Below, piece by piece: positions 498-5,588 of a stretch of 5,629 nucleotides of DNA. Both the position numbers and the translations under genes were made by a program. The notes under the pieces are model-generated. The model worked only from the letters and a program-made list of their open reading frames with translations. It did no database searches and was not told the origin of the DNA. Source of the stretch: Candidatus Woesearchaeota archaeon (GTDB taxonomy: Archaea > Nanobdellota > Nanobdellia > Nanobdellales > CAZNIQ01); the NCBI GenBank assembly GCA_964573185.1, contig CAZNIQ010000009.1:1-5629 (forward strand), given 5' to 3'. Each line of letters begins with the position of its first letter. Within the stretch, counting starts at the first letter, position 1.

Positions 498-522
498 CTA
501 AAGTTATTTATAAATACTACGT

Positions 523-597
523 AGCGGGGTGGGGCAGCCTGGAGTGCCCGGGGGGCTCATAACCCCCAGGTCCCGGGTTCAAATCCCGGCCCCGCTA
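523..597 (+). tRNA. tRNA-Met: tRNA-Met (anticodon CAT), probably the initiator tRNA; no intron, CCA not encoded
   Basis: Manual cloverleaf: acceptor AGCGGGG(523-529)/CCCCGCT(590-596), D-stem GGGC/GCCC, anticodon stem GGGGG(551-555)/CCCCC(563-567), loop CTCATAA with CAT at 558-560, variable loop AGGTC, T-arm CCGGG-TTCAAAT-CCCGG, discriminator A597. The A1:U72 pair and all-G:C anticodon stem are initiator hallmarks in archaea. The gene is GC-rich in an AT-rich background. Confidence 0.9.
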
Positions 598-623
598 TGG
601 GACATTACTATATAGTGGTAACA

Positions 624-762: not shown

Positions 763-1467
763 AAAGATTTTGAAATAATTTTTACTTTAACAAGAGAATT
801 TAAGAATTTACTTTTAATTTGTATTTCTTCAAATCCCGAAATTGATTCCGAATTACAGAAATATCCTGCAATTTATTCTTCTTATTATCCAATAAAAGTT
901 GTTTTTGGACCCTATAATGCACAAGAACTTTTACAGATTTTGGAAATCCATGCAAAACATGGACTATTTGAAAATACATGGGATAAAGATGTTTTAGCAA
1001 TGATTGCAAAGAGAACATATGATGAAGCTTTTTCAGATGCAAGAATAGCTGTTTTAACTTTGTATAATTTAGCTCAAATTTGTGAGACAAAGGGATTAAA
1101 TAAACTTTCTTCGGAATATGTCGATGAAGCATTTAAACAAGCCGTTAAATTAGCAAAGTATGAACACATTTCGAGAATAAATGATAAAGCTTTCCTTGTT
1201 TTATATTCAATAGGATTGGCTAACAAAAATGGAATAACTTCTAGTTCTGAAATTTACAAGAAATTCTTTACACAGGTTTATTCCAGAGTTTATGGAAATG
1301 TTTTATCAGAAAGGCAGTTTAGAAGATACGTTTCATATTTAAATTCATTTAATCTTGTGAATATCTATAAGAAAAGGAAAGGAGCTGTTACAGCTTTTGA
1401 ATTAGAATGCAATGTTGATTGGAAATTGTTAGAAGAAGAATATGGGAAAAGATTTGAAGAAAAATAG
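763..1467 (+). pseudogene. orc1/cdc6: Orc1/Cdc6 replication-initiator homolog, 5'-truncated remnant: sensor-1-like region, lid and C-terminal winged helix, with no Walker A/B
   Basis: The frame is open only from 763, after TAA at 760-762. Translation gives ...LLLICISSNPEIDSELQKYPAIYSSYYPIKVVFGPYNAQELLQILEIHAKHGL...FSDARIAVLTLYNLAQICE...VDEAFKQAV, then a WH-like part (FLVLYSIGL...SSSEIYKKF...LSERQFRRYVSYLNSFNLVNIYKKRKGAVTAFEL). The F-x-P-Y...EL..IL motif (898-942) and the (G/S)DAR sensor-2 motif (1033-1044) are Orc1/Cdc6 signatures. The first usable start is TTG 940. At most 234 codons are present, against roughly 400 in full-length homologs. Confidence 0.75.
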
Positions 1468-1476
1468 CATCTATTT

Positions 1477-2508
1477 TTATATTTTTCCAAGAACCAAATA
1501 TTCCAATAGTTTTATACCATCTTCTTTTGGCAGCTCTTTCATAGAACCTTGTAAACTTTGTACGCACTTTATTTTATTTAATTTTAATTTTTTAATAATA
1601 TCCTTATTAAATGGTCTTTCATATACTTTCTTAGTGATAAGTTTTATTTTAAATCTATAGGCATAAATGCCATCATCCCATATTTTGCGCTTATCTTCAA
1701 AAGGTGTTGATACTCGTTTAAAGATTCCAGTTATTTTCATTCCCTCCTTTTTATTTTTGCTCTTTTTAATATAAAAAACAAGATAATCTGTTTTATCTTC
1801 TTTCTCTATGCGTTTTATTAAATTTAAATATCTATTATCTTTTACTTCTGGTGGTATTTTTACACCCCATAATTTTTCCTTTAAACACTTTTTGTAATTT
1901 TCAATTGACGTTATCAAAAGCCAAATACGTGCCTTACCCTCATTAAGTTCTCTTTTTATGCTTTCAATTATTGATTTTTTCGTTCCTTTACGTTTCTCTC
2001 TATATTTTTCATATTCTTTCTTATATCCTTCAATAAATTCTTTTTCTAATTTCTTTCCTCTTTTCCAAATTTCATTAAAAATTTTCATCAATTTTCTATA
2101 AGTTTTATATCTTGTGAATCCATAAAGTATTGTATTAATTTCTATATTTCTTTCGAAACCTCCTTTGCTTAAATTAGAAGATCCTATTATTGCTATAAAT
2201 TTATTTTCAAAAGTAAAAACATATAATTTAGTATGAAAATCTTTATCTCTTATTATTCTAACTTCTTTATCTCCTTCTGAACATATTTCATAAAGTTTTC
2301 TTAAAGCTTTAGGAGTAGTAGAACCAAAAGCCCCTACAATTATTCTTATCTTTTTAGCTTTTCTTAAATGCTCCTCTAAAATTTCTATTCCTCCTTTATA
2401 CCTAGCATATGCTACTGCAATGTAAATTTCATCTAAATCTTTTGGTATTTTTTCTTTAATAAAAGCTCCTAATTTTTCAAATAAATTACATTGAATTCTT
2501 GTTGGCAT
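1477..2508 (-). CDS. PLD-family (single HKD) nuclease domain fused to a C-terminal EVE/PUA-like domain; predicted modification-sensing nuclease
   Basis: Intact 343-aa ORF with ATG start and TAA stop. N-terminal part: ...DEIYIAVAYARYKGG...KIRIIVG...FHTKLYVFTFENKFIAIIGSSNLSKGGFERNIE (HxK ... GSxN). A K/E-rich linker spans residues about 131-192. C-terminal part: ARIWLLITSIENYKKCLKEKLWGVK...DYLVFYIKK...ITGIFKRVSTPFEDKRKIWDDGIYAYRFKIKL...GSMKELPKEDGIKLLEYL, matching the archaeal EVE-domain pattern. It has its own TATA-like box upstream. Confidence 0.85.
   Translation of the reverse strand: MPTRIQCNLFEKLGAFIKEKIPKDLDEIYIAVAYARYKGGIEILEEHLRKAKKIRIIVGAFGSTTPKALRKLYEICSEGDKEVRIIRDKDFHTKLYVFTFENKFIAIIGSSNLSKGGFERNIEINTILYGFTRYKTYRKLMKIFNEIWKRGKKLEKEFIEGYKKEYEKYREKRKGTKKSIIESIKRELNEGKARIWLLITSIENYKKCLKEKLWGVKIPPEVKDNRYLNLIKRIEKEDKTDYLVFYIKKSKNKKEGMKITGIFKRVSTPFEDKRKIWDDGIYAYRFKIKLITKKVYERPFNKDIIKKLKLNKIKCVQSLQGSMKELPKEDGIKLLEYLVLGKI
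1480..1932 (-). other. EVE (PUA-like) domain, residues about 193-343
   Basis: Pattern W-x-x-I-T-S...N...LWGV...(D)YLVFY...I-x-G-I-F-x-V-x-S-x-P-F-x-D...Y-x-Y-R-F-K-I-K...ELPxED is typical of archaeal stand-alone EVE (formerly DUF55) proteins. W196 codon verified at 1921-1923. Confidence 0.7.
2119..2508 (-). other. PLD-like nuclease domain (residues about 1-130) with HKD motif at nt 2167-2235
   Basis: H92-T-K94-LYVF-T99...G109-S-S-N112-L-S. The His codon was verified at 2233-2235 (ATG on the plus strand, CAT on the minus). The canonical Asp of HxK(x)4D is Thr here. There is one HKD copy per chain, which implies a dimeric active site as in Nuc and BfiI. Confidence 0.75.
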
Positions 2509-2519
2509 AAATTATAATT

Positions 2520-2527
2520 TTTATATA
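2520..2527 (+). promoter_or_regulatory. TATA-like box (TTTATATA) for the divergent decayed ORF starting at 2548
   Basis: Its centre is about 24-25 nt upstream of ATG 2548. It sits back to back with the minus-strand box at 2528-2535 inside a 39-bp divergent spacer. Confidence 0.3.
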
Positions 2528-2535
2528 CTTTAAAA
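2528..2535 (-). promoter_or_regulatory. TATA-like box (TTTTAAAG on the minus strand) for the PLD-EVE gene
   Basis: It spans -27 to -20 relative to the ATG at 2508 on the minus strand, consistent with a leaderless or near-leaderless transcript. Confidence 0.35.
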
Positions 2536-2547
2536 TGATATTATATA

Positions 2548-2989
2548 ATGAGGCTTGTATCTATTTTACCTAGATATCCAGTTTACATTATTAAACCTAG
2601 AAAAGCAAAAGTAGGATTTTGTAAACTTATAAGAGCACCCACTAAGGATAAAATTATGTAATACAAACAAAAATTTCTAGATACAATTGCAAATATATTA
2701 AAAGAGAAATTGGAATTAGAACAAGGTATAGAATTGGAGTTAAAGAGGGAGAAAGAACTATAGCTAGAAATAAAGAATATATTGCAAATTTTACAGTATA
2801 TATTATCTGATCATATATAGATTAGAAGATATCTACAAATTCTACACAGAAATAGGCTTTACTATTAAAAGAAAAAGAGATAAGCTAGCTTATGTCCTAT
2901 TCCTTTTATTAAATTACGATCCTAAAACTGCGTTAAAGAAGTTTAAGGAAAGATTTGCTAAAATTGGAAGAGAATATATTTTATTTTAA
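2548..2989 (+). pseudogene. Decayed ORF (three in-frame stops plus one frameshift) resembling a LAGLIDADG homing-endonuclease core that lacks the N-terminal LAGLIDADG helix
   Basis: Frame 1 reads MRLVSILPRYPVYIIKPRKAKVGFCKLIRAPTKDKIM*(TAA 2659-2661)YKQKFLDTIANILKEKLELEQGIELELKREKEL*(TAG 2761-2763)LEIKNILQILQYILSDHI*(TAG 2818-2820). It then shifts to frame 2 (2822-2989): LEDIYKFYTEIGFTIKRKRDKLAYVLFLLLNYDPKTALKKFKERFAKIGREYILF*. The segment order and motifs (..IKP..K..F.., FLD.....GI, ..KF...IGF..K.K..KL) parallel I-CreI-type LAGLIDADG enzymes as I recall them. No LAGLIDADG helix is present, because the frame closes at TGA 2536-2538. Confidence 0.45.
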
Positions 2990-3026
2990 TATTGTGATTA
3001 TTTCAAAAAAGTTTACTACCAAAAGG

Positions 3027-3034
3027 CTTATAAA
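3027..3034 (+). promoter_or_regulatory. TATA-like box (CTTATAAA) preceded by purine-rich AAAAGG (BRE-like), for the three-gene operon
   Basis: Its centre is about 26 nt upstream of ATG 3056, implying a leaderless mRNA. A second box (GTTATAAAA, about 3046-3054) could instead serve the internal ATG 3110 with a short leader. Confidence 0.4.
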
Positions 3035-3055
3035 CACTACTGTAAAGTTATAAAA

Positions 3056-3832
3056 ATGGTTTCAATAAAAGATTATTTGGCTTACTTAAAATACCTCTTA
3101 ACAGAGAGAATGTCTAGAAGAGCCTTTTTAAAAGCGCTTTTGTTAGGAGGCACAGTGGCTTTAGGCGGTTATATTTCTGGAAATACCATATTTAAAACTG
3201 TAGAGACTGTTACTCGAACTGTAACTGAGAGATACACCAAAACTAAAACATATATACAGACTGTTACACAAACATATACAGAAAGGATAAAAGAAGTACC
3301 TGAATGTAAAGGTTACGCTTCTATTGTTGGTAAAGGATTAACAAGGATACTAATTGAAGAGGATGGAGAAGTACGAGAGGTCACAGCTATATGGGCATGG
3401 GATCAAGTTAGGAAAAGGAGTGTCTTAATAGCTCCAAAGAATATAGATGATGTATTAGAGATGGTAGACTATGCTATTAAAGTAGGGAAAGAAAGAGGAT
3501 ACATTGAAAAAGGAGAGGTGGAAAATAATGTTTGTGCAGCAACAGAAGGCAGAATTTGCCCAGTAACAGTATTAGATCCTGTATACATTAAAATAGGAGA
3601 CCTAAATGGAAAGGCCGTTCAGGTATATAGAGGGGAAGCTAAATTGACAATAGTACCATACTTTGATTGGAAAGAGAATGCATTGTATGTTTTGAAAGCT
3701 AAATATGACGATAAGGAATTCACTGGACCAAAAAAATATTTAGAATTTGTAAAGGAATTGCCAGGGGAATATAGAGGTTATGCTATAAGAGCTTTAGAAC
3801 AGTTATTAGATAAGAAAATATGTACTTCATAA
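3056..3832 (+). CDS. Tat-signal exported or membrane-anchored protein with a Thr-periodic stalk and an unrecognised globular domain of about 175 aa
   Basis: 258-aa ORF. It has a perfect twin-arginine consensus S-R-R-A-F-L-K (nt 3113-3133), then the hydrophobic stretch ALLLGGTVALGGYISG, then TVETVTRTVTERYTKTKTYIQTVTQTYTE, then a Cys-containing domain with no motif I recognise. An alternative start is ATG 3110 (MSRRAFLK...). It is first in the operon. Confidence 0.85.
   Translation: MVSIKDYLAYLKYLLTERMSRRAFLKALLLGGTVALGGYISGNTIFKTVETVTRTVTERYTKTKTYIQTVTQTYTERIKEVPECKGYASIVGKGLTRILIEEDGEVREVTAIWAWDQVRKRSVLIAPKNIDDVLEMVDYAIKVGKERGYIEKGEVENNVCAATEGRICPVTVLDPVYIKIGDLNGKAVQVYRGEAKLTIVPYFDWKENALYVLKAKYDDKEFTGPKKYLEFVKELPGEYRGYAIRALEQLLDKKICTS
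3197..3283 (+). repeat. Low-complexity coding repeat: alternating-Thr tract built from reiterated ACTGT(A/T) and ACATATA(TA)CAG units
   Basis: Residues 48-76 of the 258-aa protein have Thr at nearly every second position. The DNA shows ACTGTAGAG/ACTGTTACT/ACTGTAACT and two ACATATA(TA)CAG copies. Confidence 0.6.
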
Positions 3833-4113
3833 TCTTTTTACCACTGTTTTTTTCATTAACGTTAGCCAGCTATTTAAATAGAAAAAACATTATTCTATTT
3901 TTAATATTATTATTGTTCTCAATATTATTACCAGATTTTAGAATATTCATTATTGGTACTTCTTTTCTTTTAGTATCCGTAGCGTTATTATTAATAAGAG
4001 CTAGGCTTCTTAGAATAGCATTATTGTTAATTCTTTCTGCAGCTTTGCTTTTATCTTCTGTTTTAGCTGGTGTTCTAGTTCCAGTTCCAACTCCAGCAGT
4101 GCCAATATACTAA
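3820..4113 (+). CDS. Small polytopic membrane protein (97 aa, about 3 predicted TM helices, Pro-rich C-terminus VPVPTPAVPIY)
   Basis: Its ATG at 3820 overlaps the upstream gene by 13 nt. Its TAA (4111-4113) overlaps the downstream ATG (4113-4115) in TAATG. The sequence is strongly hydrophobic (L/I/F/A/V) with short R/K-containing loops. No family was recognised. Confidence 0.65.
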   Translation: MYFIIFLPLFFSLTLASYLNRKNIILFLILLLFSILLPDFRIFIIGTSFLLVSVALLLIRARLLRIALLLILSAALLLSSVLAGVLVPVPTPAVPIY

Positions 4114-5588
4114 TGATATTTTCTTTCATAGCTTTTTTACTTTTCTTAACTTTAGCTGTCATTCTTTTCTTCGATTTGCGCTACTCCTTATTCTCTTTAC
4201 TAAAAAATGTAAAGATAAAAGAGTACCCTTCTTTAGATAAGAAAATAAATGTTGCAGTGATAATACCTGTCAAAAATGAAAAATTTGAAGTATTGAAAAA
4301 AAGAATAAATAATATAATGGAAATAAAAAATATCGAGTTTAAAGATGTTAATTTTTATTTTATTATTGTTGATGATACTGATTTTAAGAAATCTGAATCA
4401 AGAAAAATTTTAGATAAAATACCTGCAAAAATCTATTATTACAAGAATTTCTTGGTTTATGATTTTGGAAATTTTCATTATTTGTTTAGATTAAAAGGTA
4501 TTAAGATGAAAGGTCCAGCAGTGAATGATGCTGTTTTATATGCTAAAGAAAGATTCAATATCAAATATTTTGCTTTATATGATGTAGAGTGGACTATTAC
4601 TTTAGAATACATTGTAAAAGCTGTGAGAATTTTAGAAAATAGAAAAGATTTGTCTTTTGTTTTTTGGAACAGAAGAACTATTCCTTGGGACGGTTTCCAC
4701 AAAATTTTAGGTATATATGTTGATCATTTCTTCGAAACAACCTTATATGGAAAAACATATTTAGATGGTATATCTATGGCACATGGGTCTTGTGGTGTAT
4801 TTAGATTAAAAGATTTTCTTGAGTTTGGAGGATTTAAACCACATATAACTGAAGATGCTGAATTAACAGTAAGGATGTATTTGAATGGTAAAAGAGGGTT
4901 ATATATAAGAGACTGGATAGAATATGGACAAAATTTACCGGGAAATATTAATGTTTCTTTAAAAACGTATTTAAGATGGGCATATGGAACAATTGATGTT
5001 GTACTAACTTATTTTAAGGAAATATTATTTTCCAAAAAACTAAATTTAATGCAAAAGTTAAGTTTGATCCACATGTTTACGCATTTCTATTCATTTGCAA
5101 TAGCATTTTTCCTAATCCTTATAAATTACATAATATTAGCTTTTAGAATAGTTACGCCTGATTATTTCTACTTTGAGCAATTCTTTTTATGGATAACCCC
5201 TATCATAGTTTTGCTCCTAATTTTAGTTTATTTACCAACATACTATAGAATTTATGGAAAAATTAATATTACAGATCTATTGAAAGTAGTTATTTTAGGA
5301 TGGGGTTTATCTGTAATTCACATTTACGCTTTATTAAAAAGAATATTTATTGGAAAAGAAGAATGGGTTGTTACGAAAAAAATAAGAGAAAAAGAGAGGG
5401 TAAGGCAAGAAATATTTACAATCTATTCCATTATGTTTTTCTTGATTCTTCCCTTATTTATTATTTATTTAATAAGCAATGTTAAGTATCCTGGGAAGTT
5501 AATATTAGGAGGCCTATCTTACTTTATTTGGGTAGTTTCTTTATTATGGATATTAGTGAAACAAATAGAACATGAGGCTAGAATATAA
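4113..5588 (+). CDS. Membrane-integrated family-2 glycosyltransferase of the processive-synthase type (cellulose/chitin/NodC/PgaC-like architecture)
   Basis: 491 aa with an N-terminal TM helix. GT2 core motifs: VAVIIPVKNE; IIVDDTD (DD at 4371-4376); KGPAVNDA; FALYDVEW (D157 at 4581-4583); ITEDAELT (TED at 4848-4856); LPGN..SLKTYLRWAYG (RW at 4974-4979). About five C-terminal TM helices follow. It is translationally coupled to the upstream small membrane protein. Confidence 0.9.
   Translation: MIFSFIAFLLFLTLAVILFFDLRYSLFSLLKNVKIKEYPSLDKKINVAVIIPVKNEKFEVLKKRINNIMEIKNIEFKDVNFYFIIVDDTDFKKSESRKILDKIPAKIYYYKNFLVYDFGNFHYLFRLKGIKMKGPAVNDAVLYAKERFNIKYFALYDVEWTITLEYIVKAVRILENRKDLSFVFWNRRTIPWDGFHKILGIYVDHFFETTLYGKTYLDGISMAHGSCGVFRLKDFLEFGGFKPHITEDAELTVRMYLNGKRGLYIRDWIEYGQNLPGNINVSLKTYLRWAYGTIDVVLTYFKEILFSKKLNLMQKLSLIHMFTHFYSFAIAFFLILINYIILAFRIVTPDYFYFEQFFLWITPIIVLLLILVYLPTYYRIYGKINITDLLKVVILGWGLSVIHIYALLKRIFIGKEEWVVTKKIREKERVRQEIFTIYSIMFFLILPLFIIYLISNVKYPGKLILGGLSYFIWVVSLLWILVKQIEHEARI

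Follow-up and report, generated by a model that had tools for sequence, protein, structure and literature searches.

Fusions of an EVE domain to a PLD-type nuclease (EVE-PLDc) were reported as 'numerous' by Bell et al. 2020 (BMC Biol 18:159, PMC7641849) and were predicted to be type IV enzymes; the set is purely computational, and neither a member nor a specificity was named. The experimental screen of Lutz et al. 2019 comprised HNH and PD-(D/E)XK fusions only. In the EVE-HNH enzyme VcaM4I (PDB 6YEX), which is dimeric, auto-inhibited by a linker helix and the one enzyme whose EVE domain has been solved with DNA, a flipped 5-methylcytosine (5mC) or 5-hydroxymethylcytosine (5hmC) is stacked between W82 and Y130 of the EVE domain and read by T11, E15 and the backbone of W22, with Q128 as an intercalating wedge (PMC7897488). 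Here we describe a 343-amino acid (aa) protein in which an N-terminal PLD nuclease domain is joined to a C-terminal EVE/PUA-like domain (the PLD-EVE protein), encoded on a 5,629-nt stretch of contig CAZNIQ010000009.1, hereafter the window. The protein shares both the two-domain architecture and the predicted role of the fusions of Bell et al.; because these were published in 2020, the architecture is not new, and the gene is one that a specialist would expect. The gene itself is a new and highly divergent member of this predicted-only kind, unnamed, at most 37% identical to any cluster and carried by a Nanoarchaeota-like genome. By analogy with characterised restriction enzymes, we consider it probable that the PLD-EVE protein is a standalone type IV-like, modification-dependent restriction nuclease.

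The gene is complete (Table 1). A first-pass annotation of the same DNA had already described an intact 343-aa open reading frame (ORF), and its coordinates, length and quoted motifs all agree with the ORF list. The encoded protein aligns end to end with members of its family, for example over residues 8-340 with P0003, its closest homolog. Gene calls on two independent contigs in public data give an identical protein; one contig comes from an ENA metagenome assembly and the other from the Logan assembly of SRR7968109. Their DNA is 99.97-100% identical to the window, and they are the sole other copies. Since the frame runs for 1032 nt in DNA of 25% G+C, a composition rich in stop codons, and contains two independent domain matches at E<1e-8, it lies far beyond what chance would produce. 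Neighbouring genes have 26-34% G+C.

The N-terminal half is matched by Pfam PLDc_2 over residues 26-148 (E=8.9e-13, 48.7 bits, cutoff 27) and by RE_NgoFVII (E=1.5e-9, 37.8 bits, cutoff 23.8), two models that match 17/17 and 15/17 family members, respectively. Matches in PADLOC were to DrmC, ZacB, type IV mREase and type II REase models. A sequence search of the PDB gave SauUSI as the best match of this half (7clg, 6.7e-8), followed by BfiI (2c1l, 2.9e-4); a profile of the family reached 1.6e-28 on SauUSI, 9.4e-10 on BfiI and 4.6e-9 on NgoAVII, and was far weaker on PLD3 exonucleases (~1e-6) and NucT (5e-3). All seven residues of the catalytic core listed in Table 1 are invariant across the 17 family members, and five of them (H92, K94, S110, N112 and E123) are also invariant among 141 wider PLD relatives. 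The core aligns with FHAKGY...GSSNL...NYEHN of SauUSI. In the HMMER alignment, H92, K94, N112 and E123 fall on H105, K107, N125 and E136 of BfiI, the active-site residues of that enzyme. From these profile matches and aligned catalytic residues, the nuclease module is predicted with confidence to be intact and to belong to the DNA restriction clade (NgoFVII/BfiI/SauUSI) of the PLD superfamily.

Examination of close relatives revealed the same PLD module fused to other modification sensors, namely a DpnI_C winged helix, Mrr_N and DCD, as well as to many unrecognised C-terminal domains. This variety of fusions points to a modular clade in which a common cutter is combined with a swappable sensor. 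An identity of the PLD half with DrmC of DISARM was considered and rejected: the protein reaches only 13.3 bits with NCBIfam DISARM_DrmC_I, whose cutoff is 133, the PADLOC DrmC match (34.9 bits) is restricted to the generic PLD core, and the window contains no helicase or DUF1998 gene that could accompany a DrmC-like PLD protein.

The C-terminal half is, on the sequence and fold matches below, an EVE/PUA-like domain of the archaeal UPF0310 subtype represented by PH1033 and MJECL36. In a PDB sequence search it matched MJECL36 (2.9e-8) and PH1033 (5.4e-8) at 29-31% identity, and the NCBIfam model PRK00809 matched the PLD-EVE protein at 8.9e-15. The family profile reached ~1e-27 on both structures, and a profile of the EVE domain alone matched only PH1033 (1.7e-26) and MJECL36 in the PDB, at 1e-25 to 1e-26. 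Pfam EVE (PF01878) was matched directly by 13/17 family members (best E=6.8e-13), a precomputed EVE annotation was present on one homolog, and the standalone EVE relatives of homolog locus L104 match PF01878 at 1e-14 to 1e-17. Residues conserved in this half are W196, T200, S201, N204, W214-G215, D241, F245-Y246, W277, Y282 and Q320, and the family motif can be written W..TS..N.........WG ... W....Y ... LQ..M.

Three of the conserved residues, W214, W277 and Y282, align with the aromatic cage W25/F79/F90 of MJECL36, a correspondence that comes from the alignment only; of the three, W277 is invariant across the fusion family and the other two nearly so. Likewise T200, S201 and N204 correspond to the rim residues T11, N12 and N15 of MJECL36. 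The MJECL36 cage superimposes on the N6-methyladenine (m6A) cage of YTHDC1 (PMC6112328; see also PMC8868631). We therefore identify W214, W277 and Y282 as the predicted counterparts of the YTH-like aromatic cage of MJECL36. At the position of Q320 (codon at window 1549-1551), a near-invariant Gln in the 'LQxxM' of the fusion family, the standalone proteins PH1033 and MJECL36 carry Gly ('FGKAM'), and in the centre of the cage the fusion family has an invariant Trp (W277) versus Phe in the standalone UPF0310 proteins. These two changes might adapt the reader to duplex DNA, the Gln serving as a wedge like Q128 of VcaM4I.

Between the two domains lies a connector of which 58% is K, E or R. In its first part it is homologous to a helical extension found after the PLD core of SauUSI, and its Y162 is nearly invariant. 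An AlphaFold2 model of the monomer, built on the 17-sequence family alignment, has a mean predicted local distance difference test (pLDDT) score of 89.1, with no segment below 50 and most of residues 11-170 above 90. In the EVE half the strands (E) and helices (H) of the model follow each other as E193-200, H202-211, E213-216, H226-236, E240-247, E258-265 and E284-290, an order that fits the PUA-like pseudo-barrel fold (beta-alpha-beta-alpha-beta4). Foldseek against the PDB returned, in order, SauUSI, PH1033, MJECL36, BfiI, NgoAVII, YTHDF2, NucT, YTHDF3, PLD3, Nuc and YTHDC1, with 1.4e-13, 3e-7 and 6.8e-7 for the PLD half on SauUSI, BfiI and NgoAVII, and template modelling (TM) scores for the EVE half of 0.76-0.77 on PH1033 (on target), 0.72 on MJECL36 and 0.69 on YTHDF2.

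The two halves proposed by the first-pass annotation are thus both recovered. Its single-HKD PLD-family nuclease with catalytic His and Lys intact is upheld by Pfam, PDB, Foldseek and the BfiI alignment, and its EVE/PUA-like C-terminus is borne out by PDB, NCBIfam, family-profile and Foldseek matches; AlphaFold and Foldseek, which it had proposed as a check, place a PLD nuclease fold and an EVE/PUA-like fold including YTH. The linker is K/E-rich and helical as described, and shorter, at about 43 residues, than the roughly 60 residues that had been given.

Table 1. Features of the window and genes found next to homologs of the PLD-EVE gene
Feature	Window position	Strand	Basis or details
Complete PLD-EVE gene	1477..2508	minus	343 codons + stop; ATG at 2506-2508; ORF list
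PLD (single-HKD) nuclease domain, residues ~18-150	2059..2457	minus	Pfam, PDB, family-profile and Foldseek matches
Catalytic core FHTKLYVF...IIGSSNLSKGGFERNIE, residues 91-123	2140..2238	minus	H92, K94, G109, S110, N112, N121, E123
K/E/R-rich helical connector, residues 151-192	1933..2058	minus	Helices 156-173 and 177-189 (AlphaFold2)
Predicted EVE/PUA-like reader domain, UPF0310 subtype, residues 193-343	1480..1932	minus	PDB, NCBIfam, profile, Foldseek
EVE loop insertion KIPPEVKDNRY, residues ~217-227	1828-1860		
EVE loop insertion KSKNKKEG, residues 249-256	1741-1764		
TATA-like A/T element (TTTAAAGTATATAAAAA)	2518..2534	minus	10-26 nt upstream of ATG; sequence read
tRNA-Met (CAT)	522..598	plus	ARAGORN; Rfam tRNA 58.6 bits; 70% G+C; left edge of variable stretch
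Convergent 5'-truncated Orc1/Cdc6 remnant	763..1467	plus	Pfam Cdc6_lid 1.4e-6, Cdc6_C 1e-3
Homolog locus L083			Type I HsdM/HsdS, KwaA/KwaB (Kiwa), Abi_C
Homolog locus L084			CBASS, HipA, IS110; DEAD/MZB and SNF2 proteins downstream
Homolog locus L085			STAND NTPase / CHAT / caspase
Homolog locus L086			Homolog between GmrSD_N (upstream) and DUF429 + SNF2 (downstream)
Homolog locus L089			HsdM and HsdR fragments
Homolog locus L090			DUF1156 methyltransferase, FokI-cleavage-domain protein, standalone EVE
Homolog locus L095			Eco57I-like enzyme, helicase
Homolog locus L099			NOV_C protein, AAA_21/DUF4276 pair
Homolog loci L087, L092, L094			Defence genes: none recognisable

The family is rare. 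A word-indexed homolog search found only the PLD-EVE protein itself and one PLD-only relative, and a search with an EVE-only alignment gave no match; an exhaustive HMMER search yielded 1696 PLD relatives, among which about 17 cluster representatives have the full PLD plus EVE architecture. Identity to these clusters is 26-37%, with no relative above 37%, and the gene was not found among 185,579 GTDB species representatives; the metagenome scan used a 6-sequence alignment. Members occur on low-G+C archaeal contigs and in high-G+C bacteria, the latter including a Minicystis contig and two loci of 65-69% G+C (L096 and L103). The closest homolog lies beside a TFIIB gene (L092). A full-length high-G+C homolog is also present on an IMG/VR contig predicted to be viral or proviral (L105, 3715-4944), the other viral-contig matches being to the PLD domain only.

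Recognised defence genes accompany the homolog at 8 of about 12 informative loci (Table 1), and no constant partner gene was found across these loci; the methyltransferases near some homologs belong to separate type I or IIG systems. Such variable, mostly defence-rich neighbourhoods without a constant partner are the pattern of a self-contained defence gene, and nothing like a conserved housekeeping gene in a fixed, non-island context was encountered.

A standalone restriction nuclease is also what the content of the protein itself would predict, as sensor and nuclease are present in one polypeptide in which Pfam, PADLOC and NCBIfam detect no ATPase or helicase motif or domain. In the mechanism that we propose, two protomers would dimerise via their PLD domains and share a single composite HKD active site, following the example of Nuc, BfiI and SauUSI. 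Phosphodiester bonds would be cut there by way of a covalent phospho-histidine intermediate, and neither metal ions nor ATP would be needed. Each EVE domain would flip a modified base of foreign DNA into its aromatic cage, as VcaM4I does with 5mC and 5hmC, and base capture would tether, and possibly de-repress, the nuclease, so that it would cut close to the modified site and not within it; the nuclease may also be auto-inhibited by the connector, in the manner of the VcaM4I linker helix. The host genome would be spared for want of the target modification. Thermophiles favour N4-methylcytosine (m4C) and m6A over 5mC. Our leading guesses for the target base are m4C or m6A, which would be most plausible at high temperature; they are drawn from this preference, from the lack of m6A binding by MJECL36 and from an Asn that replaces a Glu of VcaM4I (see below).

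Several observations weigh against a working modification-dependent nuclease. Pfam EVE does not match the C-terminal half even at E<=10 when the last 152 residues are searched alone, nor when the full protein is used, so that the profile match foreseen for residues 193-343 in the first-pass annotation was obtained to PH1033, MJECL36 and the PUA-like fold including YTH, and not to the Pfam family. This half also carries two lineage-specific Lys-rich loop insertions, both of which coincide with dips in model confidence and are missing from all other family members. The predicted TM score (pTM) of the model is only 0.62, so that confidence extends to each domain and not to how the two are oriented. 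For MJECL36, which among solved structures is the nearest relative of the reader, m6A binding was not detectable (PMC6112328). At 99.97-100% identity, the only copies are too alike to show purifying selection in this lineage. No defence gene, integrase or att site was found around the PLD-EVE gene in the window. The literature searched contained no paper that uses the terms 'PLD-EVE' or 'EVE-PLD' or that reports the biochemistry of such a protein. Finally, in two bacterial loci (L084 and L086) the homolog stands directly upstream of large SNF2/DEAD helicases, and members of this type may work inside multi-gene systems.

This last point bears on a different explanation, which takes the PLD-EVE protein for an orphaned or dispersed nuclease/sensor subunit of a multi-gene defence system, either DISARM-like or of the SNF2-nuclease/DUF499/DUF1156 kind, and inactive or weak when alone. 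In L084 (8001-17065) the genes that come directly after the homolog, on its strand, encode a DEAD/Helicase_C/MZB(DUF1998) protein of 1729 aa and an SNF2 helicase; with the homolog at the position of DrmC, this DISARM-like layout suggests a variant of DISARM that has its own reader of modified bases. The SNF2 neighbour in L086 and the DUF1156 methyltransferase and standalone EVE gene near the homolog in L090 fit the same explanation, as do the generic PADLOC matches of the window protein to DrmC (2.9e-9) and ZacB (2.3e-9). In archaea, standalone EVE genes partner with an SNF2-nuclease/DUF499/COG1743 system (Bell et al. 2020, PMC7641849), a partnership with SNF2/DUF499/DUF1156-type genes that is reproduced in L090 and L104. 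In addition, the neighbour of the PLD-EVE gene is a Cdc6/Orc1-type remnant, and DUF499 is a distant relative of Cdc6/Orc1. We nevertheless judge a subunit role unlikely: the roughly 12 family loci have no conserved neighbour, the DrmC score falls far short of its NCBIfam cutoff, and sensor and cutter are already both in the protein. The locus context covered amounts to ~7.5 kb, that is, the 5.6-kb window plus 1.9 kb of L001 beyond its left end, and neither a methyltransferase nor a helicase was found in it. A DUF499 identity of the neighbour was also rejected, the remnant matching Cdc6_lid, Cdc6_C and TIGR02928 instead.

Two of these loci were noted for their arrangement. In L090 (6709-8933) adjacent genes encode a protein with a FokI cleavage domain, a standalone EVE and the PLD-EVE homolog, a few kb from the DUF1156 methyltransferase gene, and in L104 (3-11028) two tandem standalone EVE genes are followed by SNF2-NOV_C, a 137-aa ORF, DUF499 (E=1e-197) and a DUF1156 methyltransferase. 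Both fit an origin of the fusion by the joining of a standalone EVE gene of the archaeal system to a PLD nuclease gene.

The protein might instead act on RNA, as EVE, PUA and YTH domains were first seen as RNA-binding (PMC6765204), and serve as a toxin, an abortive-infection effector or an enzyme of RNA turnover directed at modified tRNA, rRNA or viral transcripts, or at single-stranded nucleic acid. The m6A-RNA readers YTHDF2, YTHDF3 and YTHDC1 follow the UPF0310 proteins among the Foldseek matches, PLD3/PLD4 and Zucchini, PLD-family nucleases on single-stranded substrates, are among the fold matches, and the type IV-related CoCoNuTs are predicted to target RNA (PMC11090510). Such a role appears quite improbable to us, since the PLD half is far nearer to DNA restriction enzymes (SauUSI, 1.6e-28) than to PLD3 or NucT and DNA-directed systems, that is, restriction-modification enzymes and helicases, dominate the homolog neighbourhoods. 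MJECL36 did not bind m6A (PMC6112328), and the prokaryotic YTH-like McrB-N binds DNA, not RNA (PMC8868631).

The window has 28% G+C (72% A+T). The stop codon of the Orc1/Cdc6 remnant is 10 nt from that of the PLD-EVE gene. With 234 open codons and no start codon before TTG 940, this remnant has retained sensor-1 ('ISSNPE', 'FGPY'), the last part of its AAA+ domain, a lid and a winged helix, lacks Walker A/B, and matches TIGR02928 (3.2e-10) at model positions 215-357 only; it may be a dead paralog or the leftover of an integrated element. The tRNA-Met has the acceptor stem AGCGGGG...CCCCGCU with an A1-U72 pair, a pair typical of archaeal initiator tRNAs. A mobile element integrated at this tRNA was considered and rejected. 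Within <=3 mismatches the tRNA 3' end (att) is present just once in the window, which has no relevant direct repeat either, and an integrase was found in no frame of the window, the other open frames having no PHROG or Pfam match; the far boundary of such an element could fall outside the window.

On the other side of the gene, 2509-3055 (547 nt), like 74-521, is gene-free as far as genes can be recognised and unusually long for a reduced genome. These two intervals have no match in Pfam, PHROGs or Rfam, the tRNA being the only Rfam match of the window. They contain a start-less open frame of 71 codons (2774-2986), another of 86 codons (204-461), a 37-aa ORF called as a gene by public pipelines (2548-2661) and a 25-nt imperfect palindrome (2864-2909). 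Upstream of the start codon, the TATA-like element could serve as an archaeal promoter from which an mRNA with a short leader or none would start. The promoter-like element previously claimed for the gene is present and cannot be told apart from a chance occurrence: at 72% A+T the window has the TATA consensus no more often than expected, and a sigma-70 scan did not rise above shuffled sequences.

From 3056 to 5588 on the plus strand runs an apparent three-gene operon with overlapping stops and starts, whose genes look intact. They encode a 258-aa protein with a weak twin-arginine translocation (TAT)-like signal and a Thr/Val-rich repeat (TVETVTRTVTERYTKTKTYIQTVTQTYTER; DNA repeat 3201-3219 / 3255-3273), a small, very hydrophobic membrane protein of 97 aa and a multi-pass GT2 glycosyltransferase of 491 aa (PgaC/cellulose-synthase-like), and may serve the nanoarchaeon as a module for surface glycans. 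To the left of the window, L001 (3063-5026) contains a complete ABC ATPase gene and, divergent from it, a 92-aa AbrB/MazE-like gene (weak PF04014) with a 311-aa ORF overlapping its end; this pair could be toxin-antitoxin-like and lies ~3 kb from the PLD-EVE gene. The neighbours are thus a tRNA, the Orc1/Cdc6 remnant, the secreted/membrane/GT2 operon, the ABC ATPase and the AbrB/MazE-like gene. Two statements of the first-pass annotation find little support here: that the PLD-EVE gene is the only intact gene amid decayed mobile-element genes, as just one remnant is recognisable and the genes from 3056 look intact, and that this copy is defence-island cargo, as nearby defence genes, an integrase and an att repeat are lacking in the window.

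The ABC ATPase is closest to that of Ca. Nanoclepta minutus (66%), with 60% to Nanopusillus, and at the loci of these two archaea none of the other window genes was found. The encoded proteins have an IVYWREL fraction of 0.476, a crude estimate from five proteins of an A+T-biased genome. Taken with the 70% G+C tRNA in a 28% G+C window and the Orc1/Cdc6 remnant, these values support a (hyper)thermophilic Nanoarchaeota-like host, in agreement with the hyperthermophilic archaeon named earlier. That the gene is a non-functional or drifting relic in a decaying region of a reduced genome, acquired recently and by chance still open for that reason, or encodes a non-specific nuclease with a non-reading EVE domain, is very unlikely. 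In its favour, the gene adjoins a truncated copy of Orc1/Cdc6 and a stretch of 547 nt that looks non-coding, its G+C is slightly under that of its neighbours, it has no relative above 37% identity and none among the GTDB representatives, and its EVE half is divergent, with two insertions and no direct Pfam match. Against it, all invariant family residues are kept in both domains, the ORF is full length compared with the family, model confidence is good from end to end and nowhere falls below pLDDT 50 for a segment, and the identical gene was recovered from three independent assemblies.

If the PLD-EVE protein is indeed a standalone modification-dependent restriction nuclease, it would be a 343-aa thermostable enzyme that requires neither metal ions nor ATP and cuts only DNA with a particular modified base. 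It would provide a function for the UPF0310/MJECL36 fold, discussed as a prokaryotic ancestor of eukaryotic m6A readers, and would indicate that genome-reduced Nanoarchaeota still invest in innate defence. As a hyperthermophilic and probably very stable member, it is an attractive first target for the biochemistry of PLD-EVE proteins, and a reasonable candidate in the search for what the UPF0310 cage binds. A more specific proposal, which we regard as doubtful, is that the UPF0310-type EVE domain reads a modification for which there is no known NTP-independent high-temperature restriction enzyme (m4C, non-Dam m6A or an archaeal or viral hypermodification such as a 7-deazaguanine), and that a nanoarchaeal ectosymbiont of tiny genome would keep the metal-free cutter so as to tell its own unmodified DNA from the methylated DNA of its crenarchaeal host or of viruses. 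Were this the case, the protein would be the first characterised modification-dependent nuclease of DPANN archaea, would give the first function to the 'orphan YTH-like' cage of UPF0310/MJECL36, and would supply a thermostable EDTA-resistant tool enzyme for mapping the modification.

Compared with known systems, the PLD-EVE protein combines features of several enzymes. Like VcaM4I, it consists of a reader and a cutter joined by a helical linker, and VcaM4I dimerises through its nuclease domains. T200, N204, W214, W277, Y282 and Q320 are plausible counterparts of the VcaM4I pocket residues. The VcaM4I nuclease, however, is a metal-dependent HNH domain at the C-terminus, whereas that of the PLD-EVE protein is a PLD domain, predicted to be metal-independent, at the N-terminus; VcaM4I was not matched by the EVE-domain profile even at E<=10 and was not among the top 50 Foldseek matches. 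The PLD-EVE family has Asn at the place of the VcaM4I Glu that reads cytosine N4, and base specificity may therefore differ. PH1033 (PDB 1WMM/2HD9/2ZBN) and MJECL36 (PDB 2P5D) share with the protein the motifs W..T(N/S)..N.........WG and YPYR as well as the cage, and are standalone proteins of ~145 aa without a nuclease.

On the nuclease side, the closest solved PLD domain is that of SauUSI (PDB 7CLG), an ATP-dependent type IV enzyme of PLD-helicase-SRA/DUF3427 architecture, which also shares the helical extension, is modification-dependent (5mC/5hmC) and dimerises through its PLD domains. SauUSI has 953 aa, a superfamily 2 (SF2) helicase/ATPase motor and another sensor domain; the PLD-EVE protein has no motor, so that NTP-independent action is expected. 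BfiI works without metal ions as a homodimer, in which a single composite active site is combined with two C-terminal DNA-binding domains. Together with NgoAVII/NgoFVII (PDB 2C1L, 4RCT) it belongs to the same PLD subfamily as the PLD-EVE protein, with identical residue spacing (H+2 K, H+20 N, H+31 E). The C-terminal domain of BfiI and NgoAVII/NgoFVII is B3-like and sequence-specific on unmodified sites, and these enzymes occur with methyltransferases, in contrast to the PLD-EVE protein, whose C-terminal domain is a predicted modified-base reader and whose gene has no adjacent methyltransferase. The PLD-wH fusions Aba4572I and CbaI, the nearest design that has been tested, resisted purification and cause methylation (Dam)-dependent toxicity in vivo (bioRxiv 10.1101/2023.06.07.544091). 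They are small standalone proteins with a PLD domain at the N-terminus and a modification sensor at the C-terminus, as is the PLD-EVE protein; their sensor is a winged helix for G6mATC rather than an EVE domain, and a DpnI_C sensor of that sort is carried by one close relative of the PLD domain encoded in the window.

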